Source: Candidatus Fervidifonticultor quintus | GTDB lineage: Bacteria > Sysuimicrobiota > Sysuimicrobiia > Sysuimicrobiales > Humicultoraceae | Direction of reading: 5' to 3' | Assembly (NCBI GenBank): GCA_031459535.1 | Contig: JAVKIJ010000015.1 | Coordinates: forward strand, 1-45,902 | DNA: 45,902 bases | Shown here: one piece after another, positions 26,752-43,611 of the stretch | Layout of the letters: each line of letters starts with the position of its first letter | Position numbering within the stretch: position 1 is the first letter of the stretch | The notes under the pieces: generated by a model | Told to the model about the DNA's origin: nothing | Database searches by the model: none | What the model saw: the letters and a program-made list of their open reading frames with translations, nothing else | Made by a program: the position numbers and the translations under genes

Positions 26752-27801
26752 TTGACTGACCGGGAGCGCATCCGGCTCACGTCCATGGTCGCCTGCGCCG
26801 GCTGAGCGTCCAAGCTGTCGCCCGGCGACTTGGCGTACGTGTTGCGCCGTCTTCCACAACCCAGCGACCCGAACCTGCTGCTCGGGCTCGGAACCGACGA
26901 TGACGCGGCCATCTACCGCCTTACGGACGAGCTGGCCATCATCCAGACGGTGGACGTGTTCACGCCGGTGGTGGACGACCCCTACCAGTACGGCGTCATC
27001 GCCGCCGCCAACGCTCTCTCCGACATCTACGCCAAGGGCGGCCGGCCGGTGCTGGCCCTCAATGTGGCCGCCTTCCCGCGGAAGCTATCGCTCGACATCC
27101 TCGGGGACATCCTGGCCGGCGGCGCAGACAAGGCGAAGGAGGCGGGGGTGCTGATCGTCGGCGGACACTCGATCGACGATCCCGAGCCCAAGTACGGCCT
27201 GGCCGTCACCGGCTTCGTCCATCCCGCCAGGTTCGTGGCCAACCGCGGCGCGCGACCGGGCGACGTGATCTACCTGACCAAGCCCATCGGCATCGGGGTC
27301 GTGACGACCGGGATCAAGCAGGAGAAGACCGTCGATGCGCTGGCCGCGGAGGCGATCCGTGTCATGAGCATCCTCAACCGGGCGGCCTCGGAAGCCATGA
27401 TGGAGGTTGGCGTCCACGCGGCGACCGACGTGACAGGATACGGGCTGCTCGGGCACCTCCATGAGATGGTGCTGGGCGACGCGGTCACCGCGCGGGTCTG
27501 GGCCGGTGCGGTGCCGGTGCTGGCTGGCGCGCGGGAGCTGGCCGGGCAGGGCGCGGTCGCCGGCGGCACCGCCCGCAACCTGGAGTGGCTGCGGGACAAG
27601 GTCCGCTGGGCGCCGGGCATTGACGAAGTCACGCAGATCCTCCTGGCCGACGCACAGACCTCGGGCGGGCTGCTGCTGGCGGTGCCGCCGGACCGCACCG
27701 GCGCCCTCGAGACCGCCCTCCGGCGCCGGGAGGTGGAGACCATCGCGCGGGTCGGTCAGTTCCTGCCCCGCACTACGGTCGCCATCGAGGTCGTCGAGTA
27801 A
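26752..27801 (+). CDS. selD: Selenide, water dikinase containing selenocysteine (UGA at 26803-26805, codon 18)
   Basis: TTG start after a GGAGGT RBS gives MTDRERIRLTSMVACAG-U-ASKLSPGDL, in frame with the ORF at 26830; DDAA, QTVDVFTPVVDDP, ANALSDIYA, TDVTGYGLLGH, DAQTSGGLL. Confidence 0.95.
26806..26836 (+). promoter_or_regulatory. Candidate bacterial SECIS hairpin
   Basis: Immediately 3' of UGA: CCAA(GCT)GTCGC-CCG-GCGAC-TTGG, extendable by GCG/CGT. Confidence 0.6.
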
Positions 27802-27819
27802 GGCGCCCCCGGCCTCGCA

Positions 27820-29334
27820 TCAGGCGCCCAGCGCGCCTTCGGCGGCGCGGAGGATGGCTCCGGACTGGACCAGCTCCATGGCCTGCGCGAAATCCCCGGC
27901 GAGGACCCGGTCGTCCTCAAGCGAGGGGACCGCGTCCCGCACGCAGCGGTAGGCGGCAGCCGTGCCCCGGCCGAGGGCGAGTGTGTTCTCCCCCATTTCG
28001 ATCCCCTGGGCGGCAACGACCAGTTCGATCGCGAGGACCTGCTGGCTGTTCCGCAGCACAGCGGCGGCCTTGCGAGCGGCATGGGCTCCCATGCTCACGT
28101 GGTCCTCCTGGTTCGCGGAGGTGGGAATCGAATCCACACTGGCCGGGTGGCACAACACCTTGTTCTCGGAGGCGAGGGCGGCGGCGGTGTACTGCGCCAG
28201 CATGTACCCCGACTGCAGGCCGCCGCGGCCGGTGAGGAACGCCGGCAGCCCCGAGAGGTAGGGATTGACCAGGCGCTCGATCCGCCGCTCGCTGATGGTG
28301 GCCAGTTCAGCAACGGCCATCGCCGCGTAGTCGAGCGCCAGGGCCAGCGGCTCGGCGTGGAAGTTGCCGCCGGAGATGACCTCGTCCTGGTCGGGAAACA
28401 GGAGCGGGTTGTCGGTGGCGCTGTTGATCTCCACCGTGAGGACTTCGCGCAGATGCGCCAGCGCCTGCCGGACGGCGCCGTGGACCTGCGGCATGCAGCG
28501 GAGCGCGTAGGCATCCTGCACCCCGGGGTGGGAGGATCGGTGGACGCGCTCGCTCCCCTGAAGCAGCAGCAGCAGGTGACGGGCGCTGGCGATCTGGCCT
28601 GGGTGCTGGCGCGTGAGGTGCAGCAAGGGATGGAATGCGCGATCCGTGCCCCGCAACGCCTCCAGACTCAACGCACCGGCCACATCGGCGATCAGAGCCA
28701 GGCGTTCGGCCCCGAGCAGGAACAAGACCCCGATCGCGCTCACAAACTGCGTGCCGTTGATGAGCGCGATGCCCTCCTTGGCTTCCAAGACCAGGGGCTG
28801 GAGCCCGGCCTCGCGCATCGCCTGGCCGCCGGGCAACCGTGCCCCTCGGTACGTGGCCTCGCCCTCGCCGATGACCACCAGGGCCAGGTGGGCGAGCGGT
28901 GCCAGATCGCCACTCGCGCCCAGTGATCCCTGCTCGGGGATGACGGGGTGCACGCCCCGCTCGAGCATGTCTGCCAGGGTCTGGATGACCAGGGGCCGGA
29001 CGCCCGAGTAACCCAGAGCCAGGGCGTTTGCCCGAAGCGCCATCATCGCCCGCACCACCGACTCCGGCAGCGGCGCACCGACCCCGGCGGCGTGCGACCG
29101 AACGATGTTGCGTTGCAGCGCCGCAGCGTCCTCGGGGGAGATCCAGACCGTCCGCAGTTCGCCCACGCCGGTCGAGACACCGTAGACGGCCCGACCCTCG
29201 CGGAGGATGCGCTCGACCATCTGGCGGGATCGCGCCACCCTCTGCAGCGCACTGGGAGCCACGGTCACCGCCGCACCACCTGCCACCGCTTCCACGGCTT
29301 CCGGGGTGAGCGTGCATCCATCGATCTCGACCAT
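27820..29334 (-). CDS. hutH: Histidine ammonia-lyase
   Basis: VYGVSTGVG, IVRSHAAGVG (SH, His-type), MIO motif GSLGASGDLAPLAH, QDAYALRC, SGGNFH, ANQEDHVSMG; ATG 29334 with GGAGG RBS. Confidence 0.95.
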   Translation of the reverse strand: MVEIDGCTLTPEAVEAVAGGAAVTVAPSALQRVARSRQMVERILREGRAVYGVSTGVGELRTVWISPEDAAALQRNIVRSHAAGVGAPLPESVVRAMMALRANALALGYSGVRPLVIQTLADMLERGVHPVIPEQGSLGASGDLAPLAHLALVVIGEGEATYRGARLPGGQAMREAGLQPLVLEAKEGIALINGTQFVSAIGVLFLLGAERLALIADVAGALSLEALRGTDRAFHPLLHLTRQHPGQIASARHLLLLLQGSERVHRSSHPGVQDAYALRCMPQVHGAVRQALAHLREVLTVEINSATDNPLLFPDQDEVISGGNFHAEPLALALDYAAMAVAELATISERRIERLVNPYLSGLPAFLTGRGGLQSGYMLAQYTAAALASENKVLCHPASVDSIPTSANQEDHVSMGAHAARKAAAVLRNSQQVLAIELVVAAQGIEMGENTLALGRGTAAAYRCVRDAVPSLEDDRVLAGDFAQAMELVQSGAILRAAEGALGA

Positions 29335-29356
29335 GGCGGCCTCCCGCATTCCGCTG

Positions 29357-29395
29357 AAAACATGGGAGCCACGCCGCGCGGGCAGCATGGCTCCC
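29357..29395 (-). terminator. Intrinsic terminator/attenuator in the hutH leader
   Basis: Minus strand 14-bp stem GGGAGCCATGCTGC-CCGC-GCGGCGTGGCTCCC followed by ATGTTTT. Confidence 0.85.
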
Positions 29396-29441
29396 TCGTA
29401 TCTCGCGTCTCTGAGCCGACCCGACTCCTCGCTGACCCCTT
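29395..29441 (-). promoter_or_regulatory. Two putative HutP-binding sites (three NAG triplets spaced by 4 nt)
   Basis: AAG-GGGT-CAG-CGAG-GAG (29441-29425), 13 nt spacer, GAG-ACGC-GAG-ATAC-GAG (29411-29395); the last G is the first base of the terminator stem. Confidence 0.75.
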
Positions 29442-29510
29442 CTCGCGCAACCCCACGATTCCTGCCGGCGGCCCGCGCCGGGCGCGCGCAGGCTGGCAGG
29501 CGGTGGCGGG

Positions 29511-29966
29511 TTAGAGGTGCACGATGCCCAATCCGACCACCTCGTGCTCGTTACCCTTCACGGGCTGGCCAATGGTGCCGTAGAGGGCGACCGCGATCCA
29601 GGTCGTCTGATCACCGGGCAGCCGCGGCCCGCGGACCGCGGCAAACCTCAGCCCGACCGTGCGCAGCAGCGTCCCCAGGGCCAGTTGCCCTCGACCGACG
29701 CCGTGGAGCGCCTCGATGATGGCGTGGTAGAGGGCGTGCTCCTCAGCATATTCGGCACTGATGAGACCCTCGCGAGAGGCCGCAGTCTCCACGGCGGCAA
29801 TGACCTTCTCAATGTCCATGGTCCCGACGCGGCCTGCGACGCTGCGGTACCCACTCAGGCCGGCCAACACGGTCTGGGGATCGTCGGCGAGCACGGCCAG
29901 GAGCGCCACGCGGCCTATGGTGTCGGCCCGAATCCGGACCTCGCGGTTCACGACAGTCTCGCCCAC
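29511..29966 (-). CDS. hutP: Hut operon positive regulator (RNA-binding antiterminator)
   Basis: IGRVALL, GRVGTMD, EEHALYHAIIEALHGV.RG, LLRTVGLRFAAVRG, WIAVALYGTIGQPVKGNEHE, closely matching Bacillus HutP; alternative GTG start at 29951. Confidence 0.93.
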   Translation of the reverse strand: MGETVVNREVRIRADTIGRVALLAVLADDPQTVLAGLSGYRSVAGRVGTMDIEKVIAAVETAASREGLISAEYAEEHALYHAIIEALHGVGRGQLALGTLLRTVGLRFAAVRGPRLPGDQTTWIAVALYGTIGQPVKGNEHEVVGLGIVHL

Positions 29967-30814
29967 CTGGCCCCGACGAACAAGTGCTGCTGGGCGTAGC
30001 CGGCCAGAGCGCCGAACCGCTCACGGGCCCAGGCGCCAATGGCGCGCGGTGTCTGCGACCGGCCGTGGAAGTACCAGCGCTCGACCGCCCGCCTGACCCA
30101 CACGTCCACGGGGAACGCCTCGTCGTGGCCCAGGCCGAAGAGGAGCACGCACTCGGCTACCTTCTCGCCGACACCGGGCAGTTCCAGCAGGGCCGATCGG
30201 GCCTCCCCGAGCGGCAATCTGGAGAGCGCGTCCAGGTCCAGGGTGCGGTCGGCCACCAGGCGCGCGAGGTCTCGCACGTAGCGGGCCCGGTAGCCGAGTG
30301 CGCACCGGCGCAGCGCCGGCAGGCTGGCCTCGGCGAGCCGCGCGGGGCAGGGGAACGTCCAGTCCACGGGGCGCGCCTCGCTGCCAGCGGCCCCCCCGTC
30401 CGCGATCGGCTCCCCGAAGCAACGGGCCAGCGCCTGAATGCTCATCCGGATCTTCGGGATGTTGTTGAACGCGGAGACGACGAAGGACACCAGGCACTCC
30501 CATGGATCCTGGCGCATGATCCCGATGCCCGAGGTGTGGGGGAGCAGGCGGCTGATTGGGCGCTCACGGGCGAGGGCCCCCTCGACGGCCGCCAGGGGCC
30601 GGTCGGCGCCGAGGTATCGCAGCAGGCGGCGCGGCGAGTCCGCTGATCCGCCGCACCGCACCAGCAGCCCCTCGGGCCGCTGCCTCAGCCAGACGACGCT
30701 GCCGCCCACGACGCCTCTCGCACCCCTCGGGGTCAGCACCCACCTGAAACACTGGCCGCTTCGCAGGGTGCGCTCCAGACTGTAGGGTGCGGGAACGGGA
30801 AGCGCCGCGATCAC
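29948..30814 (-). CDS. 8-oxoguanine DNA glycosylase (OGG1-type, HhH-GPD)
   Basis: TLRSGQCFRW, RQDPWECLVSFVVS.FNNI, LGYRARY, LPGVGEKVAECVLLF, FPVDVWV, AGYAQQHLF; GTG overlaps the upstream stop. Confidence 0.9.
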   Translation of the reverse strand: MIAALPVPAPYSLERTLRSGQCFRWVLTPRGARGVVGGSVVWLRQRPEGLLVRCGGSADSPRRLLRYLGADRPLAAVEGALARERPISRLLPHTSGIGIMRQDPWECLVSFVVSAFNNIPKIRMSIQALARCFGEPIADGGAAGSEARPVDWTFPCPARLAEASLPALRRCALGYRARYVRDLARLVADRTLDLDALSRLPLGEARSALLELPGVGEKVAECVLLFGLGHDEAFPVDVWVRRAVERWYFHGRSQTPRAIGAWARERFGALAGYAQQHLFVGARWARLS

Positions 30815-31437
30815 GGTTCCAGCAGCCTCGCGTCCACCACCAGCTGCGACCATGTCTCCATCTGCGGATAGGCGGCGCGCACCTCGTCGCGGGAGGCGAG
30901 CCGCCCGACCAACCGATCGGCCTCCCTGACCGAGACCTCGCCGGATGCGACGTCCACCACGTGCACCAGCCCGAAATGCACCGCGCCCACGGCGTTGTCG
31001 TCGTCGTTGAGCACGCCCACCAGCCGCACGGACCACGGCCCGCCCATCACCAGCTCCTCCCCGAGTTCCCGCCGGAGCCCGGCAGCCACCACATCGTCGC
31101 TCCCTTCGACATCTTCCCTAGCCACGTGCCCGCCCACCCCGATAGAGAAGAGCCCGCGCAGCCGGCCTTCAAGGCCGCGGTGTGTGCGCTGAAAGAGCAT
31201 GTACCGGGCACCGCTGCGGACGAGCACATAAGGGATGATCTGTTTCAGCGTCGGGTCATCTTCCACATCGCGGCGACGGCGGAAGACGCCGTACCGCCGT
31301 ACGCGGCGCAGATACTCGTCGAGCCGTTCGGTCAAGACCCCGCGGAACGGCCCGCTCCAGAACAGATCGGCGCGTGGAACGACCAGGATGTCTTCGTCCA
31401 TCTCGTCGCGGGCATGCCGGACTGCCTCCTGGCTCAC
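30811..31437 (-). CDS. Predicted Nudix-family phosphoesterase (YmaB/COG4112-like)
   Basis: EDDPTLKQIIPYV, EGRL..SIGVGGH, RELGEEL, NDDDNAVGAVHFG, METWS; alternative start ATG 31401. Confidence 0.85.
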   Translation of the reverse strand: MSQEAVRHARDEMDEDILVVPRADLFWSGPFRGVLTERLDEYLRRVRRYGVFRRRRDVEDDPTLKQIIPYVLVRSGARYMLFQRTHRGLEGRLRGLFSIGVGGHVAREDVEGSDDVVAAGLRRELGEELVMGGPWSVRLVGVLNDDDNAVGAVHFGLVHVVDVASGEVSVREADRLVGRLASRDEVRAAYPQMETWSQLVVDARLLEP

Positions 31438-31946
31438 AGCGTCCCCCGGTGGATCCGCACACCGTCTGGGAAAGGGGCCTCGGCATCCGCGTAGGTGAAT
31501 TTCGCCAGAATCACCGTACTGTCCCGGTCCCGCAGATGCGGGAGCAGCAGAGGGATGTCTGGGAGGACCGGCAGCGACGCGATCTCCTGTGGCGAGGCCC
31601 ATCGCAGCGGCCCTTCGTGAGATGGGGTGACGGTGCGGTCGGCGACCTGCGCGGAGAACAGGAAGATGGCCCAATGATCCCCGGTGGACCGTACCACCAC
31701 GGTGGCGACGCCACGGAACGCGAGCGGCGGCTCGATGCCGGCCTCTTCCCTCAGCTCGCGTCGAGCGGCGTCGAGCGGATCTTCTCCGCGGTCGAGCTTG
31801 CCACCGATGGCGTTCCACCGGCCGACGTCGGGAGGCCGTTGCCTGCAGATCAGCAGCAGGTCCTCGCCGCAGAACACGAAGCAGAGGGTCCGCAGACGGA
31901 TCGCTGCGGGACCTTCAGGATGCGGGTTCGGCCGCACGATCCCCAC
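31434..31946 (-). CDS. Nudix hydrolase, MutT/8-oxo-dGTPase-like
   Basis: Nudix box GGKLDRGEDPLDAARRELREEAG; RTLCF, WNAIGG and EGPLRW motifs. Confidence 0.85.
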   Translation of the reverse strand: MGIVRPNPHPEGPAAIRLRTLCFVFCGEDLLLICRQRPPDVGRWNAIGGKLDRGEDPLDAARRELREEAGIEPPLAFRGVATVVVRSTGDHWAIFLFSAQVADRTVTPSHEGPLRWASPQEIASLPVLPDIPLLLPHLRDRDSTVILAKFTYADAEAPFPDGVRIHRGTL

Positions 31947-32742
31947 TGCCCGCCCCGTCGATCGCCACGCGCAGCGACCAGACGAACTCGCCCAATGGCG
32001 GACCTGCGCCGACGCCCTCGCGCTCGACGATGGTCACGATGGCGCTGCCCACGATCACGCCGTCGGCGACCGATGCGACCTGGCGCGCGTGTTCTGGCGT
32101 CGAGACACCAAACCCCACGCACACCGGCAGCGCCGTGTACCGACGGAGCCGCGCCACCAGATGACCCACGTCCGCCGAGAGGCTCTCCCGGACACCGGTC
32201 ACGCCGGTTAGCGAAACGCCGTACACGAAGCCGCGGCTGGCTGCCGCAACCCGCGCCAAGCGCTCATCGGTGCTCGTGGGTGCGGCCAGGAAGATGACGT
32301 CCAAGCCGGCGGAGGAGGCCACGGCCCGGAACACCGCCCCTTCTTCCGGCGGCAGATCGGGCACCACGACGCCGTCCACCCCGGCGGCCGCAGCCCGTTC
32401 GACGAAGGCGTCGAGCCCGTACCGCAGGATCGGGTTGTAGTACGAGAGCAGCACGACCGGCTGCTGGAGGAACGATCGCACCTGCGCCACCATGGCCAGC
32501 ACGCCGGCCAGGGTGGTGCGACAGCCCAGCGCCCGTTGCGCGGCTCGCTGGTTGATCGGGCCGTCGGCGATCGGATCGGAGAAGGGCACACCGATCTCGA
32601 GCAGGTCGGCGCCTGCCCCGGCGCACTGCTGCAGGAACCCGGCGGTGGCTTCCAGAGAAGGATCGCCACCCATGACGAACGGCATCAGGGCGCGCCGGCC
32701 CCCCCGGCGCAGCGATGCGAAGGCGTCCTCGATCCGGCTCAC
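31915..32742 (-). CDS. trpA: Tryptophan synthase alpha
   Basis: [48 protein letters not shown]. Confidence 0.97.
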
Positions 32743-33932
32743 GCCTCGTCCCCCATCGCCCGCGCGACGACCTCGACGTCCTTGTCGCCGCGCCCGGACA
32801 GGCCCACCAGGAGCAGGGATCCCGGCGCGAACGCCGATGCCGTGTGTGCCAGATACCCGATGGCATGCGCGGGCTCCAGAGCGGCCAGGATCCCCTCGGT
32901 CCGCGCCAGCAATCGAAATCCCTCCAGCGCCACGCGGTCATCCACCGCGACGTACTCGCCGCGACCCGTGTCCTTCAGGTACGCGTGTTCAGGGCCTACG
33001 CCCGGATAGTCGAGGCCCGCCGAGATGGAGTGGGTGGTCAGGACCTGACCATCGGCGTCCTGGAGGACGTAGCTCATCGCGCCGTGCAGTACGCCAGGCG
33101 ACCCGGCCACCAGGGTTGCGGCGTGCCGACCCGTGGCGACCCCCTCGCCGCCGGCTTCCACGCCGATCAGCCGCACCGGGTCGTCGCGGAACGCGTGGAA
33201 CAGGCCGATGGCGTTGCTCCCGCCGCCCACGCACGCCACGACCGCATCCGGGAGCCGGCCGGCCTGCTCCAGGATCTGCGCCCGCGCCTCGCGGCCGATG
33301 ACCGCCTGGAAGTCGCGAACCAGCGTGGGATACGGATGCGGGCCCACCACCGAGCCGATGACGTAGAACGTCGTCCTCACGTTGGTGACCCAGTCGCGCA
33401 GCGCCTCATTGATGGCGTCCTTGAGGGTTCGCGATCCGGCTTCGACCGGAATCACCCTGGCGCCGAGCAGCCGCATGCGGAACACATTCAGGCTCTGCCG
33501 CACCACGTCCTCGGCGCCCATATAGACTTCACAGGGCAGCCCCACCATGGCGGCGGCGGTGGCGGTCGCCACGCCGTGCTGGCCGGCGCCGGTCTCGGCA
33601 ATGATCCGCTCCTTGCTCATCCGCCGCGCCAGGAACACCTGTCCCAACGCGTTGTTGATCTTGTGGGCGCCGGTGTGGAGCAGGTCTTCGCGCTTGAGGT
33701 AGACTTGGACGCCCAGGGCCCTGCTGAGCCTGGCGGCGAAGTACAGCGGCGTGGGTCGACCGGCATAGTGGCGCAGCGCTCCGGCGAGCTCTGATTGGAA
33801 GTCGGAATCGGCGGACAGACGGGCGTACGCGCCTTCGAGTTCCTCGAGGGCGGGGATCAGGGTTTCCGGCACGTACCGCCCGCCATACGGGCCGAAGCGC
33901 CCTGTCCCGGCGGCGGAGGACGCTGCGATCAC
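32739..33932 (-). CDS. trpB: Tryptophan synthase beta
   Basis: [56 protein letters not shown]. Confidence 0.98.
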
Positions 33933-34570
33933 CGTCGCACCTCCGCCAGGCGCGCGGCCGCCTCCCTGGCCGCGACCACAAAGGCTCGAATCTTCCCAGG
34001 GTCCTTGCGGCCGTCGGTCTCGACGCCCGTGCTGACGTCCACGCCGTACGGGCGGACCGCGGCGATCCCCTCCCCCACATTCTCGGCGGTGAGCCCGCCG
34101 GAGAGAATGGTGGGCATCACCCGCGCCACCGGAGCGCCGTGGCGCCAGTCGAAGGGCTCACCGGTCCCACCCCGCTGGCCAGGCCGGTACGCGTCCAGCA
34201 AGATCGCGGAGACCGGCAGGGCCCGCAGCGCCCCCACCTCCAACGGTCCGGTCACCGGGACGGCCTTGATCACCGTGATGCCCATCGCCGCCACGGCCTC
34301 GCAGTACCCCGGTGACTCGTCGCCGTGGAGCTGCACCGCATCCAGCCGCACGCCATCGACCAGCGCCCGCAAGTGCTCCAGCGGCTCGTTGACCACGACG
34401 CCCACGCGGGTTACAAACGGCGGCAGCGACGCAGCGATCCGCCTCGCCCGGGCCAGGTCCACCTGGCGGCGTCCCGGCGCGAAGACCAGGCCGATGGCAT
34501 CCGCGCCGGCCTGCGCCGCGGCATGGGCGGCGGCCTCGTCCTGGATGCCGCAGATCTTGATGCGGATCAC
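33929..34570 (-). CDS. trpF: Phosphoribosylanthranilate isomerase
   Basis: [34 protein letters not shown]. Confidence 0.96.
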
Positions 34571-34597
34571 CTGGCGGCCTCGTCCCGATCCACTCCG

Positions 34598-35614
34598 TCA
34601 GGCCCGTTCCCGGACCCCACGGTAGTAGGACATCTTCATCGCGTCTCGCACCCGGTCCAGCGTCTCCTGGGCGATGGCGCGGGCGCGTCGGCTGCCCTCG
34701 ACAACGATCTCCTCGATGTACGCCGGCCGGGCGGCGTACTGGGCCCGCCGCTCGCGGATGGGGGCAAGGAAGGCGTTGAGGGCGCGGGCGAGCCGCTGTT
34801 TCACCTCCACGTCGCCCACCTTGCCGGCCCGGTAGCGTTGCTTGAGCTCCTCCACCTCGGCCCGGTCGGCGTTGAACGCCTCGTGGTAGGTGAACACCGG
34901 GTTGCCCTCGACCGTCCCAGGGTCGGTGGAGTGAATGCGCTTGGGATCCGTGTACATCCGCATCACCCGCTGGGTAACCACTTCGGCATCATCGGATAGG
35001 TAGATCACGTTGCCCAGCGACTTGCTCATCTTGGCCCGGCCGTCGGTGCCCGGCAGCGTGCCCACCTCGCCGATGAGCGTGGCGGGCTCGGGGAACACCG
35101 GCGCGAACGTCTCGTTGAACCGCCTGGCGATCTCGCGGGTCAGCTCCAGATGCGACGCCTGGTCCTTGCCCACCGGGACGATCTCACCGCGCACGGAGAG
35201 GATGTCGGCGGCCTGGAGGACCGGGTAGTTGAGCAGACCGGCCGACGGCTGGACGATGTGCAGGTCCCTCATGACTTCCTTCAACGTGGGCACCCGCTGC
35301 AACCTCGGCACGGTCACCAGCATGGAGAAGATGAGCTGCAACTCGCTGATCTGGGGCACCGCCGACTGGAGGAAGATCGTGGAGCGCTCGGGATCGATGC
35401 CCACGCTGAGGTAGTCCAGCACGATCTCCCGGATGTTGTGCTCGATCTCCTCGAGGTTCTCCAGGCGCGTGGTGAGGATGTGGTAGTCGGCCAGGAGGAA
35501 GAAGCACTCGTACTCGTCCTGCAGCCGCACCCGGTTGGCGAGCGTGCCGACATAATGCCCCAGGTGGAGCTTCCCGGTGGGACGGTCGCCCGTGAGCAGA
35601 CGTCCCTTCTTCAT
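34598..35614 (-). CDS. trpS: Tryptophan--tRNA ligase
   Basis: LTGDRPTGKLHLGHY, YPVLQAADI, VPVGKDQ, KMSKS; ATG overlaps the trpC stop. Confidence 0.97.
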   Translation of the reverse strand: MKKGRLLTGDRPTGKLHLGHYVGTLANRVRLQDEYECFFLLADYHILTTRLENLEEIEHNIREIVLDYLSVGIDPERSTIFLQSAVPQISELQLIFSMLVTVPRLQRVPTLKEVMRDLHIVQPSAGLLNYPVLQAADILSVRGEIVPVGKDQASHLELTREIARRFNETFAPVFPEPATLIGEVGTLPGTDGRAKMSKSLGNVIYLSDDAEVVTQRVMRMYTDPKRIHSTDPGTVEGNPVFTYHEAFNADRAEVEELKQRYRAGKVGDVEVKQRLARALNAFLAPIRERRAQYAARPAYIEEIVVEGSRRARAIAQETLDRVRDAMKMSYYRGVRERA

Positions 35615-36441
35615 CGCACCATACCTCCTATCTGATCGGCGGTCTCGGCGGCGAGCCGCAGGCTTCGCAGATGCGCCGACGGGTCTGGATGTGCCATCAG
35701 CGCGGTCCCCACCAGGATCGCATCGATCCCGGCGGCGCACACCCGCCGCACGTCATCCGGGGTCTCGATACCGCTCTCGCTGATCACGACGACGCCGGCC
35801 GGAATGCGCGGCCGCAGCCGGCGGGTGGTGTCCAAATCGACCCGCAGGGTCTGGAGATCGCGGTTGTTGATGCCGATGACCCCTGCCCCGGCCGCCAGCG
35901 CCAGGTCCACGTGGGCCTCCGTGTGCACCTCGAAGAGGGCCGTCATGCCCAACTCTTGGGCCAGACGGCCCAGCGTGATCAGATCCTCCGACGCGACGGC
36001 GCCTGCAATCAGCAGCACCGCGTCCGCGCCCAGCGCCCGCGCCTCGTACATCTGATAGGTGTCCACGATGAAGTCCTTCCGCAGCACCGGCAGCGCCGAG
36101 GCCGCGCGCACGGCCGGCAGATCCTCGGGGCGACCGGCGAAATACCGACGGTCGGTGAGCACCGAGATGGCCGCCGCGCCAGCGGCCTGGTACCGGCCGG
36201 CTATCGCGGCAGGATCCGCGTCTGGCCGGATCGCACCCGCTGACGGCGAGGCACGCTTGACCTCGGCGATGAGGCGCACCGGCGGGCCAGTCACCGCCGC
36301 CGCAAAGTCCTGGGCGCGCGGCGCGGCCAACGCGCGTCGACGCATGGCTTCCAGGGGCACGGCCTGGCGGCTGGCCGCCACCTCCTGCCGCTTGTGCGCG
36401 ATGATCTCGTCGAGGATCACGGTGGTCACGTCGTCCCGCAC
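35611..36441 (-). CDS. trpC: Indole-3-glycerol phosphate synthase (start could be 36441, 36429 or 36420)
   Basis: ILDEIIAHK, IAEVKRASPSAG, ISVLTD, LRKDF, IGINNRDL, SESGI. Confidence 0.96.
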   Translation of the reverse strand: MRDDVTTVILDEIIAHKRQEVAASRQAVPLEAMRRRALAAPRAQDFAAAVTGPPVRLIAEVKRASPSAGAIRPDADPAAIAGRYQAAGAAAISVLTDRRYFAGRPEDLPAVRAASALPVLRKDFIVDTYQMYEARALGADAVLLIAGAVASEDLITLGRLAQELGMTALFEVHTEAHVDLALAAGAGVIGINNRDLQTLRVDLDTTRRLRPRIPAGVVVISESGIETPDDVRRVCAAGIDAILVGTALMAHPDPSAHLRSLRLAAETADQIGGMVR

Positions 36442-36457
36442 TCCTGGCCGCCTCCCC

Positions 36458-37468
36458 CTACGCCGCCCGGGTGTGGACCCGCAACTCCTCCAGCTTCTCA
36501 TATGCCGCGCCCGAGTCGATGGCGCGGGCCGCCAGGTCCATGCCCTCGGCCAAGTCCTCGGCCAGCTCCGCGGCCACCAGTGCGGCGCCCGCGTTGGCGA
36601 CCACCAGGTCCCGCGCCGGCCCCCTCTCGCCCCGCAGGACGGCCAGGGTCACCTCGGCGTTCTGCTGCGGCGTCCCGCCGGCGATGGCATCGGCCGGGGC
36701 CGGCGGGATGCCCAGCGTCGCCGGCTCGATCATCCGCACCTGGACCCGACCGTCGCGCAACTCGGCCACCTGCGTGGGCCCCAGCGTCGACACCTCGTCC
36801 ATGCCATCGCCGTGGACGACCAGCGCCCGCCGCACCCCCAGCTCGCCCAGCACCTCGGCCATGATCCTCACCAGCGAGGGATCATAGGTGCCGACCAGCA
36901 GGCTCGACGCTCCCGCTGGATTGGCCAGGGGACCAAGGATATTGAACACGGTCCGAATGCCGATCTCCCGCCTCGGGCCGGCCGCGTGCTTCATCGCCGC
37001 GTGGTAGATCGGGGCGAAGAGGAATCCAATGCCGATGTCCTCGATGCAACGCTGAACGACGTCGGGCGGCACCTGGATGTTGACACCCAGCGCCTCGAGC
37101 ACATCGGCGCTCCCGCACTGCCGGCTTATCGCCCGGTTGCCGTGCTTGGCCACGTACCCCCCACAGCCGGCCACGACCAACGCCGCCGTCGTCGAGACGT
37201 TGAACGTGCTGACCCGGTCGCCGCCGGTCCCGACCACGTCAACGAGCCGCTCAACCCTCGGGACCACCCGCAGCGCCCGCTCCCGCATCGCGCGGGCGAA
37301 ACCCGCGATCTCGTCTACCGTCTCCCCGCGCATCCGCAGGGCGGTGATGAAGGCTGCGATCTGCGCCGAGGTGGCCTCGCCGTCCATGATCTCGCCCATG
37401 GCCGCCCAGGCGTCTTGCTCTGAGAGCGTCTGGTGGTCGGTGACCGCGCGGATCGCTTCGCGAATCAT
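36458..37468 (-). CDS. trpD: Anthranilate phosphoribosyltransferase
   Basis: DVVGTGGD..TFNVST, AKHGNR, GSADVLEALG, RTVFNILGPL. Confidence 0.97.
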   Translation of the reverse strand: MIREAIRAVTDHQTLSEQDAWAAMGEIMDGEATSAQIAAFITALRMRGETVDEIAGFARAMRERALRVVPRVERLVDVVGTGGDRVSTFNVSTTAALVVAGCGGYVAKHGNRAISRQCGSADVLEALGVNIQVPPDVVQRCIEDIGIGFLFAPIYHAAMKHAAGPRREIGIRTVFNILGPLANPAGASSLLVGTYDPSLVRIMAEVLGELGVRRALVVHGDGMDEVSTLGPTQVAELRDGRVQVRMIEPATLGIPPAPADAIAGGTPQQNAEVTLAVLRGERGPARDLVVANAGAALVAAELAEDLAEGMDLAARAIDSGAAYEKLEELRVHTRAA

Positions 37469-38118
37469 CTCGCGTCCTCCATCGGAGCCGCAGGAACGGG
37501 CTCGCCGCTCCGTCGCCGCCCTGCTGCCGTCCCGCCGGCGGGGCGGTACGCCGCCGCCAGACCCAAAAAGCGCGCCAGGATCGCCTGGCCCACAGCCGTC
37601 ATCACCGACTCGGGGTGGAATTGAACACCCTCGATGGGGTAGCGCCTGTGCCGCAGTCCCATGATGGTCCCGTCCTCGAGCTGGGCCGAGATCTCCAGCT
37701 CGTCGGGGAGGCCCTCGCGGGCCACGATCAACGAGTGGTAGCGCGTAGCCTCGAACGGCAGGGGGAGCCCCTCGTAGATGGTCCGTCCGTCGTGGTGGAT
37801 GCGTGAGGTCTTGCCGTGCACCGGCACCGGCGCGCGGACCACGCGGCCGCCGAAGGCATCCCCGATGCACTGGTGGCCCAGGCAGACGCCGAGGATGGGT
37901 GTGCTCGGTCCCAGACGGCGGATGACCTCGACCGAGATGCCGGCTTCCCGGGGCGTGCACGGCCCCGGCGAGATGACGATGGCCTCGGGGCCGCGGGTGG
38001 CCAGCTCGTCGACCGTGATCGTGTCGTTCCGGAATACCTCGAGCGCGGCGCCCAGTGCCCCCAGGTGCTGCACCAGGTTGTACGTGAACGAGTCGTAGTT
38101 GTCGATGACCGCGATCAT
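37465..38118 (-). CDS. trpG: Anthranilate synthase component II
   Basis: IDNYDSFTYNL, ISPGPCTP, GVCLGHQ, RYHSL, GVQFHPES. Confidence 0.96.
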   Translation of the reverse strand: MIAVIDNYDSFTYNLVQHLGALGAALEVFRNDTITVDELATRGPEAIVISPGPCTPREAGISVEVIRRLGPSTPILGVCLGHQCIGDAFGGRVVRAPVPVHGKTSRIHHDGRTIYEGLPLPFEATRYHSLIVAREGLPDELEISAQLEDGTIMGLRHRRYPIEGVQFHPESVMTAVGQAILARFLGLAAAYRPAGGTAAGRRRSGEPVPAAPMEDAR

Positions 38119-39620
38119 GTGGCCACTCCTGCCCGCATAAGGGGCTCGCGGGCCCGGCCGACGATCTCCAGGGCGCGGACCAGGGCTCGGGCCTTGCTTA
38201 CCGTTTCCAGGTACTCGCGCTCGGGCACCGAGTCGGCCACGATCCCGGCTCCGGCCTGGAGGTACGCGCGGTCATCGGACACAAAGATCGTGCGGATTGT
38301 AATGGCCGTGTCCATGTTGCCCGAGTAGCCCACATACCCCACCGCGCCGGCGTAGGGGCCGCGGGAGACCGGCTCGAGCTCGTCAATGATCTCCATGGCG
38401 CGGATCTTGGGCGCCCCGGTCACCGTGCCGGCCGGGAAACAGGCGCGCAGTACGTCGAACGCATCGCGGCCCGCATCCAGCCTGCCGCGCACGTTGCTGA
38501 CGATGTGCATCACATGGCTGTAGCGCTCGATGCTCATCAGGTCGGTGACTTCCACGGTCCCATAGCGGCAGACGCGGCCGAGGTCGTTGCGACCCAGGTC
38601 CACCAGCATGGTGTGCTCGGCCCGCTCCTTCTCGTCGGCCAGCAGCTCTGCCTCCAGGCGCCGGTCGTCGGCTTCGTTCAACCCGCGCGGCCGCGTGCCG
38701 GCCAGCGGCCGCGTCTCCACCACGCCGTCTTCGAGCCGCACCAGCAGCTCGGGTGAGGAGCCCACGATCTTGACGGCGTCGAAGTCCAGGAAGAACATGT
38801 ACGGCGACGGATTCACCCTGCGCAGCGCTCGGTAGATGTCCAGGGTGTCCAGGCCCGCCACGCGCGCCGAGAACCGCCGCGACAGGACCACCTGGAAGAT
38901 GTCTCCGGCCGCCACGTACTCCTTGGCGCGCGCCACGGCCCGCAGGTAGTCGGACGCCGTCGTCTGCTGATCCATCACGGGCTCGACGCGCCCGGTCGGC
39001 TCAGGCGGGACCAGCGGCTGCCGCAGGCGTTCGTAGATCTGCTCGATGCTCTCCACCGCGCCCCGGTAGGCCTCGGGCGCACTGCTGTCCACCACGGCGT
39101 TGGCGACGATCTTCATCCCGTGGGCGACATGGTCGAAGATCACCACCGCATCGGTGAGCACCAGGAAGCACGTCGGGATGCCCAGGGGGTCGGGCGGCGG
39201 GTTCGGCAGCCGTTCCCAGAGCCGCACGCAGTCGTACCCGAAGTACCCCACCAGGCCGCCATAGAAGCGCGGCAGCCCGGATTGGGGAACGGGCGTGTAC
39301 CCGGCCAGCAGGCTCCGTGCCACCTCTAGGGGATCGCCCTCGGTCGCAAACGACCCCCGGGCGCCTTCCACCACCACCTGACGGCCGTAGGCGCGCAGCC
39401 GGGTGGTGGGGCCGGTACCAATAAAGGAATAGCGGCCCAGCTTCTCACCGCCCTCGACGCTCTCCAGCAGGTAGGCATCCTGACCGGTGCGCAGCTTGAG
39501 GAACGCCGAGATGGGGGTCTCCAGGTCTGCGAAGAGATCACAGGTCACGGGGATCAGATTGCCACCCCGCGCGTGACTCAGGAACTCCGTCTTGGTCGGC
39601 GAGATGGCCAGGCGGCTCAT
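38115..39620 (-). CDS. trpE: Anthranilate synthase component I
   Basis: LLES (Trp feedback motif), NPSPYM, GSSPE, AGTRPRG, KERAEH.MLVDLGRND, GAPKIRAM. Confidence 0.96.
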   Translation of the reverse strand: MSRLAISPTKTEFLSHARGGNLIPVTCDLFADLETPISAFLKLRTGQDAYLLESVEGGEKLGRYSFIGTGPTTRLRAYGRQVVVEGARGSFATEGDPLEVARSLLAGYTPVPQSGLPRFYGGLVGYFGYDCVRLWERLPNPPPDPLGIPTCFLVLTDAVVIFDHVAHGMKIVANAVVDSSAPEAYRGAVESIEQIYERLRQPLVPPEPTGRVEPVMDQQTTASDYLRAVARAKEYVAAGDIFQVVLSRRFSARVAGLDTLDIYRALRRVNPSPYMFFLDFDAVKIVGSSPELLVRLEDGVVETRPLAGTRPRGLNEADDRRLEAELLADEKERAEHTMLVDLGRNDLGRVCRYGTVEVTDLMSIERYSHVMHIVSNVRGRLDAGRDAFDVLRACFPAGTVTGAPKIRAMEIIDELEPVSRGPYAGAVGYVGYSGNMDTAITIRTIFVSDDRAYLQAGAGIVADSVPEREYLETVSKARALVRALEIVGRAREPLMRAGVAT

Positions 39621-40429
39621 CGCCCAAGCACTCCCTCTTCAACGTCGCGACGGAGGCGGGCCACTTCGGCTTCGAAGCGCACCAGCGCCCGCAAAATGGC
39701 CTCACGGTTGGCCCGGCAGATCTCCTGCCACAGGGCGAGAGGGCTGCGCGCCGCGCGCGTCATGTCCCGCATGGTGGGCCCGCCCACGGCTCGCGCATCG
39801 TCGGCGATGGCACGGTCGAGCGCCAGGCTCACCAGGTAGGGCAAGTGGCTGGCCTGGGCCACCAGCTCGTCGTGCTGCACAGGGTCCAGCACGACGGGCT
39901 GCATGCGCAGGGCTGCAATCACGGCCCGCATAGTGGCCACCGCGGCGGGATCCGTGCGGGCGGTCGGCGTCAAGACGTACGGCCGGCCGTCGAGCAGCGA
40001 CGCGTCCGCAGCTGCCATCCCCTGCTTCTCATTGCCGGCCATGGGATGCCCGCCAACGAACCGGACGCCGCCGGGCAGAGCGGCGCTGATGGCGGCCACC
40101 ACCGGCACCTTCACGCTGCCCGTGTCGGTGAGGATCGCACCGGGCCGCATCCGCCGGGCTGCCGCGAGCCCGACCGGGGCCACCTGCGCCAGGGGGGTGG
40201 CCACAATAACCAGGTCGGCGCCGCCGACCAGATCCAGGCCGACCCCACCCGCGTCCACGGCGCGGCGTGCCTGCGCTTCCTCCACGGCCCGCAGATCGAT
40301 GTCGATGCCCACGACGTGGACACCCACCTCGCGCAGCCGGAGCGCCAGCGACCCACCGATCAACCCCAGGCCGATCACGGCCACGGTGCGCGGAAAGCCA
40401 GCGGGTTCCCCGGGAGTGTCCACGGTCAC
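39617..40429 (-). CDS. tyrA: Prephenate/arogenate dehydrogenase (270 aa, no ACT domain)
   Basis: [25 protein letters not shown]...SHLP, RDMTR.A. Confidence 0.92.
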
Positions 40430-41445
40430 ATCTGGCGGCCGACCGCGCCCGCCACCGCCCGCAGCGACGCCATCAGCCCCGAAAAGTTCTCCAGGGTGAG
40501 CGACTGCGGGCCATCGGAATACGCATTAGCCGGGTCGGGATGCACCTCGACCATCAACCCGTCGGCGCCGGCCGCCACGGCGGCGCGCGCCATCGCCGGG
40601 ACATACTTCCACTTCCCGGTGCCGTGACTGGGATCAACGATGACCGGGAGGTGCGTCAGGCTCTTGAGGACCGGCACAGCCGAGAGGTCCAGCGTGTAGC
40701 GCGTGTGGTTGTTGAACCCCCGCACGCCGCGCTCGCAGAGCACGACCTGGTAGTTCCCTTCGCTCAGGATGTATTCTGCGGCCAGCAGCAGTTCCTCGAG
40801 GGTGGCGCTGACGCCCCGTTTGAGCAACACCGGCAGTCGGAGACGGCCGGCCTCGCGCAGCAGGGGGTAGTTCTGCATGTTGCGCGCGCCGATCTGGATC
40901 ATGTCTGCGTAGCGGCTGACCAGCTCAAGCTGAGAGGCGTCCATGGCCTCGGTCACGACCGGGAGCCCGGTGCGCTCGCGGGCTTCGACCAGCAGCCGCA
41001 GGCCTTCCTCCTCGAGCCCCTGAAACGAGTAGGGAGAGGTGCGGGGCTTGAACGCGCCGCCCCGTAGGATGGTGGCACCGGCGGCCTTGACGGCGTCGGC
41101 GGTGGTCAGGATCTGCTCCCGGCTCTCCACCGAGCACGGCCCGGCCATGACCGCCAGGCGCGGCCCGCCCACCTCGGCGTTCCCGACGCGCACGACGGTG
41201 TCCTGCGGGATGAACTCCCGGCTGACGAGTTTGAACGGCTGGAGGATCGCGACGACCTTCTCCACGCCGGGGGCGACCTCCAGCGACTCCCGGAGGATCT
41301 CCTTGGTTCGGTCGTCGCCGACGACGCCGATCACGGTGCGCGCCACGCCCACCGAGACGTGGGTGTTCAGGCCCGCAGCCTGGACCCTCTGGACCACCGC
41401 CTGGATCTGTGCTTCGGTGGCGCTGGGCCCCATGACGACGATCAT
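40426..41445 (-). CDS. aroF: DAHP synthase type I-beta with N-terminal regulatory domain
   Basis: MIVVM start, [47 protein letters not shown]. Confidence 0.95.
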
Positions 41446-41504
41446 GCCATCCACCCCACCGGCTCGAATCCCATCAGCTCCTCACCCCCTCTTGATGCCC
41501 TCAC

Positions 41505-41541
41505 AAACAAACACCTCTCGCCCTACGAGGGACGAGAGGTG
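41505..41541 (-). terminator. T-box terminator
   Basis: CACCTCTCGTCCCT-CGT-AGGGCGAGAGGTG followed by TTTGTTT. Confidence 0.9.
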
Positions 41542-41850
41542 AACTCCCGCGGTGCCACCCGGGTTCCGCGCGTGCCTCCCTGGAACGCGCGGCGCTCGTA
41601 CTCCTGTCTCGACGGAGTCGCCGATGAACCTACTGTGCGGCGTGATGAGCCTGGCCGCGACGTGCTATAGCTGTCCAGGCTCCAAACCCCACGCTACACC
41701 TTCGCTTCATGCCTCCCGGGCCCATTCCCCACCCCGTGGCTGCCACGGTTTCACCACCCCGCAGCTCTCTTCCGCCGGCGACGCCCTGGCGGCGACGCCG
41801 ACGCCCATCGGGAAGCCACCGATGGTGGGTACTCTCCCCGGTCCTCGGCC
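41505..41850 (-). ncRNA. T-box riboswitch, Trp specifier
   Basis: Stem I with AGUA/GAA loop E, AGAGAG bulge, GGUGAAA distal loop and specifier UGG (41724-41722); stem II with GAA/AGUA; IIA/B ACUCC/GGAGU; T-box AACCCGGGUGGCACCGCG (41565-41548); terminator. Confidence 0.93.
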
Positions 41851-41867
41851 TATGAGATTTTCCTGTA

Positions 41868-41876
41868 AGTATACCA
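41868..41876 (-). promoter_or_regulatory. Extended -10 promoter (TGGTATACT) for the T-box/aro-trp operon
   Basis: TGn-TATACT about 18 nt upstream of stem I. Confidence 0.7.
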
Positions 41877-41964
41877 CGGGAAGGCAAGCCCCGCAGGAGC
41901 CCTGGGGCTGGTGCCGAAACCACCATCTCCAATACCGACATACCGATCGGCGAGGGGGGACACC

Positions 41965-43611
41965 ATGGACGATGACGCGCGCCTGGAAGCAGTGCTGTCT
42001 TGCTTGAGCCCCACCACGCGGCGGCAGTTCCTCAAGCAGATGTCCGCACTGGGCGTCACCGCCGCCACCGCTGGGGCTATTCTCCTCCGAAACCCTCTGA
42101 TCGTCAACGCGGCGCCCAGCCCTAAACGCGGCGGCACCGTGCGGGTGACGGGTCACCAGGAGGTGTCCAGCCTCAGCCCTGACGATGACGCGCCGTCGGT
42201 CCACTGGGTCATCACCACCCAGCTCCACAATGCGCTGCTCGAGGGCAACGAGTACAACGTGATCGAGAAGGTGCTGGCCGAGAGCTACACGGTGTCCAGG
42301 GACGGCCTCACCTACACCTTCAAACTGAGGCGCGGGGTCAAGTTCCACGACGGCAGCGAGTTCTCCGCCGAAGATGTGAAGTACACCTACGAATGGTACA
42401 TGAACCCGACCAATGCCGCCAACGGGGCCATCAACTTCAAGAGCGTCGACCGGATGGATGTCCCCGACAAATACACCGTCCTCGTCAAGATGAAGGAGCC
42501 GTTCGCGCCGTTCCTGGTCAACACGGCGACGACGTTCATCTACTCCGCCAAGTACCACGGCCGGATCGGCGAGAAGGCCTACAAGAGCCAACCCATGGGG
42601 ACCGGGCCGTTCAAGCTGCGAGAGTGGCGGCCAGCAGAGTACACCCTCCTGGAGGCCTTCGACCAGCACTTCCGGGGCCGGCCCCACATCGACTTCTTCC
42701 GCCAGGACGTGGTGCCCGAGCCGTCGGTGCGTGCCATCGCCCTGCGCACCGGGGCCTCGGATTCGGCCACGTGGCCCTTGCTAGTGGAAGACAACCTCCG
42801 GTTCGAGCAGGACCCGAACTACGTGGTGTTCCGGACGCCCAGCACCGGCGTCAACCACTTCCCGCTCAACAACAAGCTGCCTCAGCTCTCCGACAAGCGC
42901 GTGCGCCAGGCCATGATGCACGCCATCGACCGCCAGCGCCTCATCGACGATGTGTTCCGCGGCACGGCACAGATCGCCCATTCGATCTATCCGCCGTCCA
43001 TGCGCACCTGGTACGACCGCGGGCTGAAAGTCTACAACTACGACCCCGGCCGCGCCCGCTCGCTCCTGGAGGAGGCCGGCTGGCGCATGGGGCCTGGCAA
43101 CGTGCGCACCAAGGACGGGCAGCGGCTCTCGTTCACGTGCGCGGTCATCACCGGTGACCGGGCCCGGCGGCCCGAGGCCGAGATCGCCCAGCAGGACCTG
43201 GCGGCGGTCGGCATCGAGATGCGCATCGTCGAGCGGCCGGTGGCCACCATCCTGGAACAGCTCCCCAAGGGCCAGTTGGACGCCTCCCTGTTCAACTGGA
43301 CCTACAACAGCGGCGCGCTAGAGCCAGACCCGCAGAGCACCCTCAGGACAGGCGGCGTGCGCAACTTCGCCAGCTACAGCAACCCCCGCATGGATCAGCT
43401 ACTGGACCAGGGCCTGCGGGAGACCGACGTCAAGAAGCGCCAGAAGATCTACCAGGAAGTCCAGCGGATCTTCGTGGAAGACGTGCCGGTGCTGTACATC
43501 ATGTACTGGGACTGGTTCAACGTGTTCAACAAGCGCATCAAGGGGCTGCCCACCAAGCCCGAGACGGCGTTCGAGATCTACCGCAACGCGTACAAGTGGT
43601 GGATCGAATAG
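41965..43611 (+). CDS. Peptide ABC substrate-binding protein with Tat signal
   Basis: TRRQFLK twin-arginine motif; YTFKLRRGVKFHDG, GTGPFKL, VRQAM..AIDR. Confidence 0.92.
   Translation: MDDDARLEAVLSCLSPTTRRQFLKQMSALGVTAATAGAILLRNPLIVNAAPSPKRGGTVRVTGHQEVSSLSPDDDAPSVHWVITTQLHNALLEGNEYNVIEKVLAESYTVSRDGLTYTFKLRRGVKFHDGSEFSAEDVKYTYEWYMNPTNAANGAINFKSVDRMDVPDKYTVLVKMKEPFAPFLVNTATTFIYSAKYHGRIGEKAYKSQPMGTGPFKLREWRPAEYTLLEAFDQHFRGRPHIDFFRQDVVPEPSVRAIALRTGASDSATWPLLVEDNLRFEQDPNYVVFRTPSTGVNHFPLNNKLPQLSDKRVRQAMMHAIDRQRLIDDVFRGTAQIAHSIYPPSMRTWYDRGLKVYNYDPGRARSLLEEAGWRMGPGNVRTKDGQRLSFTCAVITGDRARRPEAEIAQQDLAAVGIEMRIVERPVATILEQLPKGQLDASLFNWTYNSGALEPDPQSTLRTGGVRNFASYSNPRMDQLLDQGLRETDVKKRQKIYQEVQRIFVEDVPVLYIMYWDWFNVFNKRIKGLPTKPETAFEIYRNAYKWWIE

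Follow-up and report, generated by a model that had tools for sequence, protein, structure and literature searches.

What brings a histidine-degrading enzyme to the end of a tryptophan operon, and from where is it transcribed? The question is raised by contig JAVKIJ010000015.1 of Candidatus Fervidifonticultor quintus (candidate phylum Sysuimicrobiota), a stretch of 45,902 nucleotides (nt) that was analysed as a whole and is called the window below. It is one entire contig of a metagenome bin of 3.1 Mb in 138 contigs, 89% complete, with 5% contamination and about 70% G+C. On its minus strand (-), a tryptophan (Trp) T-box leader is followed by aroF-tyrA-trpEGDC-trpS-trpFBA-nudix-nudix-like-ogg-hutP, then by a putative HutP-binding site made of NAG triplets, an intrinsic terminator and hutH. 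A sequence-only reading of this locus had proposed that hutP and hutH depend first on T-box read-through and then on antitermination by HutP, so that histidine degradation would be gated by Trp limitation. The analysis described here leads to a more modest answer. Serial control by Trp and histidine is probably real in this genome but incidental, a by-product of the site where a hutPH cassette landed. As for the source of transcription, the chances seem evenly balanced that the T-box promoter is the main supplier of hutP in this genome. About as much weight can be given to the broader picture, in which a hutPH cassette without a promoter of its own has settled 3′ of the last gene of a T-box operon common to the genus, and lives on read-through.

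The first switch is the Trp T-box leader at 41503..41854 (-). At the gathering score, Rfam returned no match of any family in the entire window. A scan at permissive E-values gave a full-length match to the T-box family RF00230 at 41854-41525 (local E 8.8e-7), which with 38 bits falls short of the gathering score of 93. This shortfall is shared by all 10 T-box candidates of the genome, the best of which reaches 77 bits against 93, so that standard annotation would report no T-box in this organism. The elements of the leader were read directly, and compared among the four genomes of the genus that hold the T-box region (the genus comprises six genomes, this one and five congeners). The specifier is a UGG at 41724-41722, preceded by GAA and followed by a purine (GAA-UGG-G, 41726-41721), and GAA-UGG-purine is kept in all four genomes, with an A after the UGG in one of them. 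The antiterminator, GGG[UGGCACC]GCGGGAG...CUCUCGU-CCC, is invariant in the four genomes and carries a 7-nt bulge whose UGGC (41557-41554) matches the GCCA 3′ end of tRNA-Trp(CCA), single in the genome. A mutually exclusive terminator shares its 5′ strand with the antiterminator: its 12-bp stem at 41541-41512 is followed by the T-rich tail TTTGTTTGT, and the fold has a z-score of -4.1. With these defining elements present and conserved, the leader at 41854..41503 is, on its sequence features, a Trp T-box despite the low Rfam score.

The likely promoter of the T-box operon lies just upstream, at 41868..41887 (-). It is of the extended -10 type, with TG at 41876-41875 and TATACT at 41873-41868, and a TTGCCT hexamer (41887-41882) stands only 8 nt 5′ of this -10. 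Congeners have TTGCCA or TTGTCA at the same place, then 16 nt and TGnTATACT. Measured against three congeners, the -35-like hexamer of this genome stands 8-10 nt closer to the extended -10. Like the leader, the extended -10 (TGnTATACT) is conserved in the four genomes with this region, and near the operon no other AT-rich island occurs on this strand.

The second switch starts with hutP itself (29511..29951, -), whose GTG start overlaps the ogg stop (GTGA). Its product belongs to the HutP family, with 91 bits against 25 for PF09021 and 169 against 155 for the equivalog NF002838, and it matches the solved structures of Bacillus subtilis HutP (E 2e-39, 138 bits). Residues H72, H76 and H136 are invariant in all five aligned sequences and correspond to histidines in the B. 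subtilis structure, which we take to be its ligands for histidine and Mg2+. No mention of His73 or His138 was found in the available part of PMC2425495. From the hutP stop to the hutH start there are 176 nt, and this gap holds the putative HutP RNA site (29395..29441, -), made of six NAG triplets in two sets of three, with 4-nt spacers. The sets, at 29441-29425 and 29411-29395, are 13 nt apart, and the second abuts the stem of the hutH-leader intrinsic terminator (29354..29395, -), which runs from 29395 to 29364 and is followed by ATGTTTTCAG. The NAG-set pattern has six matches in the whole window, against 11.4 expected, and two of the six fall in the hutP-hutH gap. The strict pattern of the proximal set recurs in this gap in 8 of the 11 loci inspected, window included, and only this one of the two sets is clearly conserved in relatives. 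The terminator folds at -46 kcal/mol (z-score -3.2), and in an alignment of seven loci 4 of the 14 pairs of its stem change on both sides with pairing kept. The window thus shows what is expected of a HutP system, an intrinsic terminator between hutP and hutH beside an NAG site. In a system of the B. subtilis type, hutP is promoter-proximal in the hut operon; here it comes fourteenth in its string, with its start on the stop codon of ogg. A G+C-rich hairpin without a T tract is also present directly after the hutP stop, 5′ of the NAG sites (29457-29496, -); it is not obviously conserved in the congeners G001 or G003.

What HutP would govern here is narrow. The genes hutU and hutI lie on other contigs than hutPH. 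As a second HutP target, hutU was considered and rejected: neither an NAG set nor a terminator was seen in the gap of about 90 nt before it (contig C106). With hutU and hutI placed elsewhere and no HutP-type leader seen before hutU, HutP would control only the first step of histidine breakdown.

Between the two switches the genes are packed end to end. The string from aroF through hutH counts 15 genes, whose identities come from Pfam and NCBIfam searches and whose start codons were refined before the junctions were measured. The tight packing claimed from the letters alone holds: from aroF to hutP, 10 of the 13 junctions are 4-nt ATGA or GTGA overlaps, the trpA/nudix junction is a 32-nt overlap (23 nt if an alternative start is used), and the two gaps measure 16 nt (trpD-trpC) and 27 nt (trpS-trpF). 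The gene names given earlier were likewise borne out by the family searches, save that the second nudix has no Pfam or NCBIfam match. All on the minus strand, the genes begin with aroF (40426..41445), a DAHP synthase with an N-terminal ferredoxin-like domain, and tyrA (39617..40429), a prephenate/arogenate dehydrogenase, both identified by Pfam and NCBIfam. The trpEGDC block follows at 35611..39620 (trpE 39620-38115, trpG 38118-37465, trpD 37468-36458, trpC 36441-35611; all Pfam), then trpS at 34598..35614, a tryptophanyl-tRNA synthetase by Pfam and by TIGR00233 (310 bits, cut-off 177) and the only one found in the 89%-complete genome. Next come the trpFBA block at 31915..34570 (trpF 34570-33929, trpB 33932-32739, trpA 32742-31915; Pfam again) and a NUDIX hydrolase at 31434..31946 (Pfam, NCBIfam), whose start overlaps the end of trpA. 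The nudix-like gene (30811..31437) has a GTG start overlapping the preceding stop, with an alternative ATG at 31401. Its NUDIX likeness comes from a protein-atlas (Atlas) lead alone, and its orthologue in G001 gives a weak NUDIX match (E 8.8e-4). It is followed by ogg (29948..30814), of the 8-oxoguanine DNA glycosylase family (OGG_N and HhH-GPD). After hutP and its leader, hutH (27820..29334), a histidine ammonia-lyase (TIGR01225, 665 bits against 539), was given the ATG at 29334, after GGGAGG. Beyond it, a convergent AIRS-family gene occupies 26830-27801 on the plus strand. No foreign signature marks hutPH, G+C and third-position G+C (GC3) being even across all 15 genes.

Translational coupling may begin even before aroF. 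Between the T-box terminator and aroF sits an upstream open reading frame of 10 codons (41442..41474, -), whose ATG lies at -29 from the aroF start and whose stop overlaps the aroF ATG (ATGA). It has the strongest Shine-Dalgarno sequence of the T-box leader. In all four genomes with the region (the window, L006, L007 and L096) it has the same length of 10 codons and the same codons at both ends, with a variable middle. As read from these features, the small frame suggests a translational coupling device for aroF.

Is the long string interrupted by any signal of its own? The earlier claim that neither a terminator nor a clear promoter lies between the T-box and the hutH leader stands, since nothing convincing was found there, besides the two attenuators, in consensus and relaxed scans. 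A consensus scan for terminators on both strands returned nine sites, against 3.3 ± 1.7 expected, three of the hits being the two attenuator terminators. The other minus-strand hits, at 40229 (tyrA), 37589 (trpG) and 31893 (the NUDIX gene), are short stems within coding sequence. No strong intrinsic terminator other than those of the two attenuators is thus found on the strand, and 14 genes fill the roughly 12.1 kb from one to the other. The consensus scan for promoters gave one promoter-like hit, outside the operon, and the relaxed scans gave one extended -10 promoter, the one 5′ of the T-box. Inside the operon, -10 hexamers matching at least five of six positions occur twice, at 38301 (trpE) and 36886 (trpD), neither with a good -35. 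From 27820 to 41840 there is no 30-nt window of at least 57% A+T, a level that the T-box promoter reaches, and from 29948 to 31946, over nudix, nudix-like and ogg, there is neither such a window nor a -10 hexamer of at least five of six. These absences carry some weight, because promoters of the related genomes (70% G+C) stand out as AT-rich islands: G001 has a TATAAT, G005 an island 3′ of ogg, and G054 a TTGCGC-17-TAACAT ahead of hutP. For hutP itself there is no place for a separate promoter: its overlap with ogg is 4 nt in both this genome and G001, and in G003 it starts 26 nt after ogg.

RNA from the locus also exists. One metatranscriptome run contains half of the words sampled from the locus, and its assembled contigs cover all 30 bins over 27600-42100. 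One of them (29663-30477) bridges ogg and hutP with two differences, and the trpB/trpA, trpS/trpF, aroF/tyrA and T-box terminator/aroF junctions are bridged as well (among the pieces listed, 8 of 121). This establishes only that an RNA library contains the stretch and that ogg and hutP are contiguous there. The bins of lowest depth, 30988-31955, around the nudix/nudix-like junction, are not evidence for a break. Over the T-box promoter region, a contig of this library omits one base at 41857.

Put in series, the two switches would work as follows. Transcription would start at the single extended -10 promoter near 41873. The UGG specifier of the nascent leader would pair with the anticodon of tRNA-Trp, and the UGGC bulge with the GCCA end of the tRNA if uncharged; upon this pairing, the antiterminator would replace the 41541-41512 terminator. 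The polymerase would then travel some 12 kb, over 14 genes coupled in translation, the last of which is hutP. Without histidine, the transcript would stop at the 29395-29364 terminator, which would then be the operon's end. With histidine, and with Mg2+ if the protein resembles that of B. subtilis in this respect, HutP would bind the NAG triplets by the stem and allow read-through into hutH. The T-box would in this way set the amount of hutP and hutH template, and HutP with histidine would decide whether hutH is made. The Trp input is unlikely to be absolute. Because the only trpS found sits inside the operon, the T-box is probably a homeostat with permanent basal read-through, and as expression would never cease, Trp would act on hutH as a graded multiplier and not as an on/off switch.

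How much of this is shared by relatives? HutP was searched in 61 related genomes, the window's own included, and found in five. The T-box/trp-nudix-ogg string is common to all six genomes of the genus, and hutPH stands behind ogg in three of them (this one, G001 and G003). Synteny of trpA to hutP, which had been put forward as a check, thus gives a divided answer: the order is whole in G003, where everything from aroF to hutH recurs, and interrupted in G001, where the same order holds save for one inserted gene, and hutP is absent from the other three congeners. These three keep aroF...trpA-nudix-(nudix-like)-ogg and have hutH elsewhere. Beyond ogg, one of them (G004) has a small gene, a convergent AIRS-family gene and an SBP5 gene, the same flank as the window has after hutH; this suggests that hutPH was either added to the end of the operon or lost from it. 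The identity of hutH was tried as a clue to the origin of the cassette and proved uninformative, being 70-76% to every copy compared, whether or not hutP accompanies it. In the same G004 (L119:4870-5300, -), hutH lies about 115 nt 3′ of a tRNA-Trp gene, which itself comes after rpmG and a TATAAT box. This is a second and different Trp-hutH adjacency in the genus, possibly by coincidence.

A wider scan, with one genome per species, gave 221 HutP relatives. Among the best 80 of these 221, whose loci were examined, 78 have no trp gene in the upstream flank (at most 10 kb), and the only records with trp genes upstream of hutP are those of G001 and G003. More distant relatives have hutP behind an intergenic region of its own. 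At one such distant locus (L012:7750-8110), hutP comes about 80 nt after a same-strand gene whose C-terminus presumably resembles histidinol-phosphate aminotransferase. In G054 (L009:6560-7377), the promoter mentioned above, an NAG-triplet set and a terminator all stand ahead of hutP, and the next gene is not hutH, as if HutP regulated its own leader there and had a different target.

Several points weigh against T-box read-through as the source of hutP. The -35/-10 spacing of the T-box promoter is 8 nt here against 16 nt in two congeners, and its strength is uncertain. Consensus scans are blind to promoters for other sigma factors, to weak promoters and to Rho-dependent ends. The RNA run consists of assembled contigs without a DNA control, which give no starts, ends, strand or level, and a contig is not equivalent to a single transcript. 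Both nudix and ogg are housekeeping genes, and their place under a Trp attenuator argues for an additional promoter. Finally, the string is split in G001, where a kynureninase-like gene on the opposite strand, together with a perfect TATAAT island, stands between trp-nudix and nudix-like-ogg-hutP-hutH, and by this layout the latter block can evidently run without the T-box. The insert (L006:13273-14502, -) is of the Aminotran_5/KYNU_C type, a type of Trp-catabolism enzyme, and the island lies in the gap before the nudix-like gene, at about 14500-14600 of L006.

The best-surviving rival, already named by the sequence-only reading, is an internal promoter. A non-consensus or alternative-sigma promoter in the 3′ part of trpA, in nudix or in nudix-like would drive nudix-like-ogg-hutP(-hutH) independently of Trp, a possibility that we take seriously and nevertheless consider doubtful. 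Histidine acting through HutP would then be the only specific input of hutH, an equally tentative proposition. Genes for DNA repair and house-cleaning would be expected to be on whatever the Trp status, the G001 block is able to run from its own TATAAT island, and the trpA-nudix gap of 37-80 nt in four of the five congeners could house a signal. However, by eye these congener gaps hold no AT-rich island, and the window has no gap at all at the trpA/nudix, nudix/nudix-like and nudix-like/ogg junctions, over which the scans for -10 hexamers and AT-rich windows came up empty. The proposed dependence on the T-box and then on HutP is retained in part: the anatomy fits a single long transcript with the Trp T-box terminator as its first obstacle and the HutP terminator as its last, while a non-consensus internal promoter keeps some likelihood.

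A second rival goes further than read-through and makes the coupling the product of selection. In such a two-input gate, hutH would be made only if charging of tRNA-Trp falls and histidine is plentiful, the T-box taking a role like that of CodY. A starvation input to hut has precedent, since B. subtilis hut is repressed via CodY when amino acids are available (PMC12591593, in its available part), and the series arrangement is unbroken in two species, this one and G003. It is nonetheless limited to the genus, unbroken in only two of its six genomes and broken in G001, while three congeners hold hutH elsewhere without hutP. The operon with the sole trpS is implied never to be off, and hutU and hutI, on other contigs, bring no NAG site or terminator seen before hutU. 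We thus regard such a gate as unlikely. A circuit designed to make histidine degradation depend on Trp shortage finds no support, given a cassette behind ogg in three of six genomes, a string broken in one of these, 78 of the 80 best HutP loci without trp genes upstream, and the only trpS inside the operon. The patchy distribution and the broken string of G001 are also the reasons for calling the coupling incidental. For a bin of 138 contigs with 5% contamination it is conceivable, but highly improbable, that assembly put side by side a trp operon and a hut cassette lying apart in the cell, since two congeners that were assembled independently show this order too (one of them on a 197-kb contig), an RNA contig spans ogg/hutP, and base composition is even over all 15 genes.

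How does read-through from a T-box into a HutP cassette compare with systems already described? T-box-controlled trp operons are known in Gram-positive bacteria. The leader resembles their trp and trpS T-boxes in the UGG specifier of stem I, the 7-nt bulge with UGGC, the competing terminator and antiterminator, and its place before Trp genes and trpS. Unlike them, it scores below the Rfam gathering threshold and is hosted by a candidate phylum, and unlike their trp operons, the one that it heads unites aroF, tyrA, trpS, two NUDIX-type genes, ogg and hutP. The second switch has in common with hutPHUIGM of B. subtilis the HutP protein, two NAG sets with 4-nt spacers, the hutP-hutH terminator and three conserved histidines. 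In the available parts of PMC2425495 and PMC12591593, B. subtilis HutP is described with two XAG-rich sites and a requirement for histidine and Mg2+. Site II of that system is placed 3′ of a G-C-rich segment, with a 17-nt linker (PMC2425495, same part), whereas both NAG sets are here 5′ of the G+C stem and their linker is 13 nt. The surroundings differ even more: hutP is not first behind its own promoter but part of a foreign operon, and only hutH follows it, in place of the full hut set.

Serial control by two attenuators has relatives too. In the aro supraoperon of B. subtilis, a long aromatic-pathway transcript contains an internal trp leader under the control of the TRAP protein. As in that case, a second attenuator lies here inside a long transcript, and the genes downstream would be under two serial controls. 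There, however, the internal attenuator senses Trp, the product of its own pathway; here each of the two responds to an amino acid of its own, and the gene under the second is catabolic. Tandem riboswitch gates offer another comparison, with two serial RNA sensors, each with its terminator, giving a two-input response (PMC9481103 and PMC5912903, in their available parts). Those are adjacent in a single 5′ leader, whereas the two switches of the window are about 12.1 kb and 14 genes apart, and one of them is a protein-RNA switch. In the accessible portion of the review PMC9481103, the T-box appears only in the reference list. Literature on HutP together with the T-box and tryptophan yielded general reviews only, and in what was available of the main text of the phylum paper PMC11604079, histidine, tryptophan, hutH and the T-box go unmentioned. 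The arrangement is new and both of its mechanisms are known; it is not a new kind of system.

What would this arrangement mean for the organism and for the two families of switches? Its practical value is modest, the parts being those of textbooks, their linkage confined, as far as these genomes tell, to one genus, and its biological meaning unproven. Selection would give it the most, since hutH output would then be the product of uncharged tRNA-Trp, a proxy for amino-acid starvation, and of histidine sensed by HutP, in a natural serial gate where an RNA-tRNA switch is combined with a protein-RNA switch along a single mRNA of 14 kb. This would require that the Trp T-box was taken over as the nutritional-state input of histidine catabolism, with hutPH having no other promoter and selection acting in at least two species, all of which is improbable. 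Apart from this, T-box and HutP control are extended to an uncultured candidate phylum of high G+C, in which routine annotation would miss the T-boxes, the standard model scoring every candidate of the genome below threshold. Should T-box read-through be the sole supply of hutP and hutH, the window would offer a natural example of two unrelated attenuation systems, a tRNA-sensing RNA and a histidine-sensing protein, placed in series on one mRNA. It would then illustrate that the site where a regulatory cassette lands can be enough to cost it its promoter and to bring it under a foreign input.

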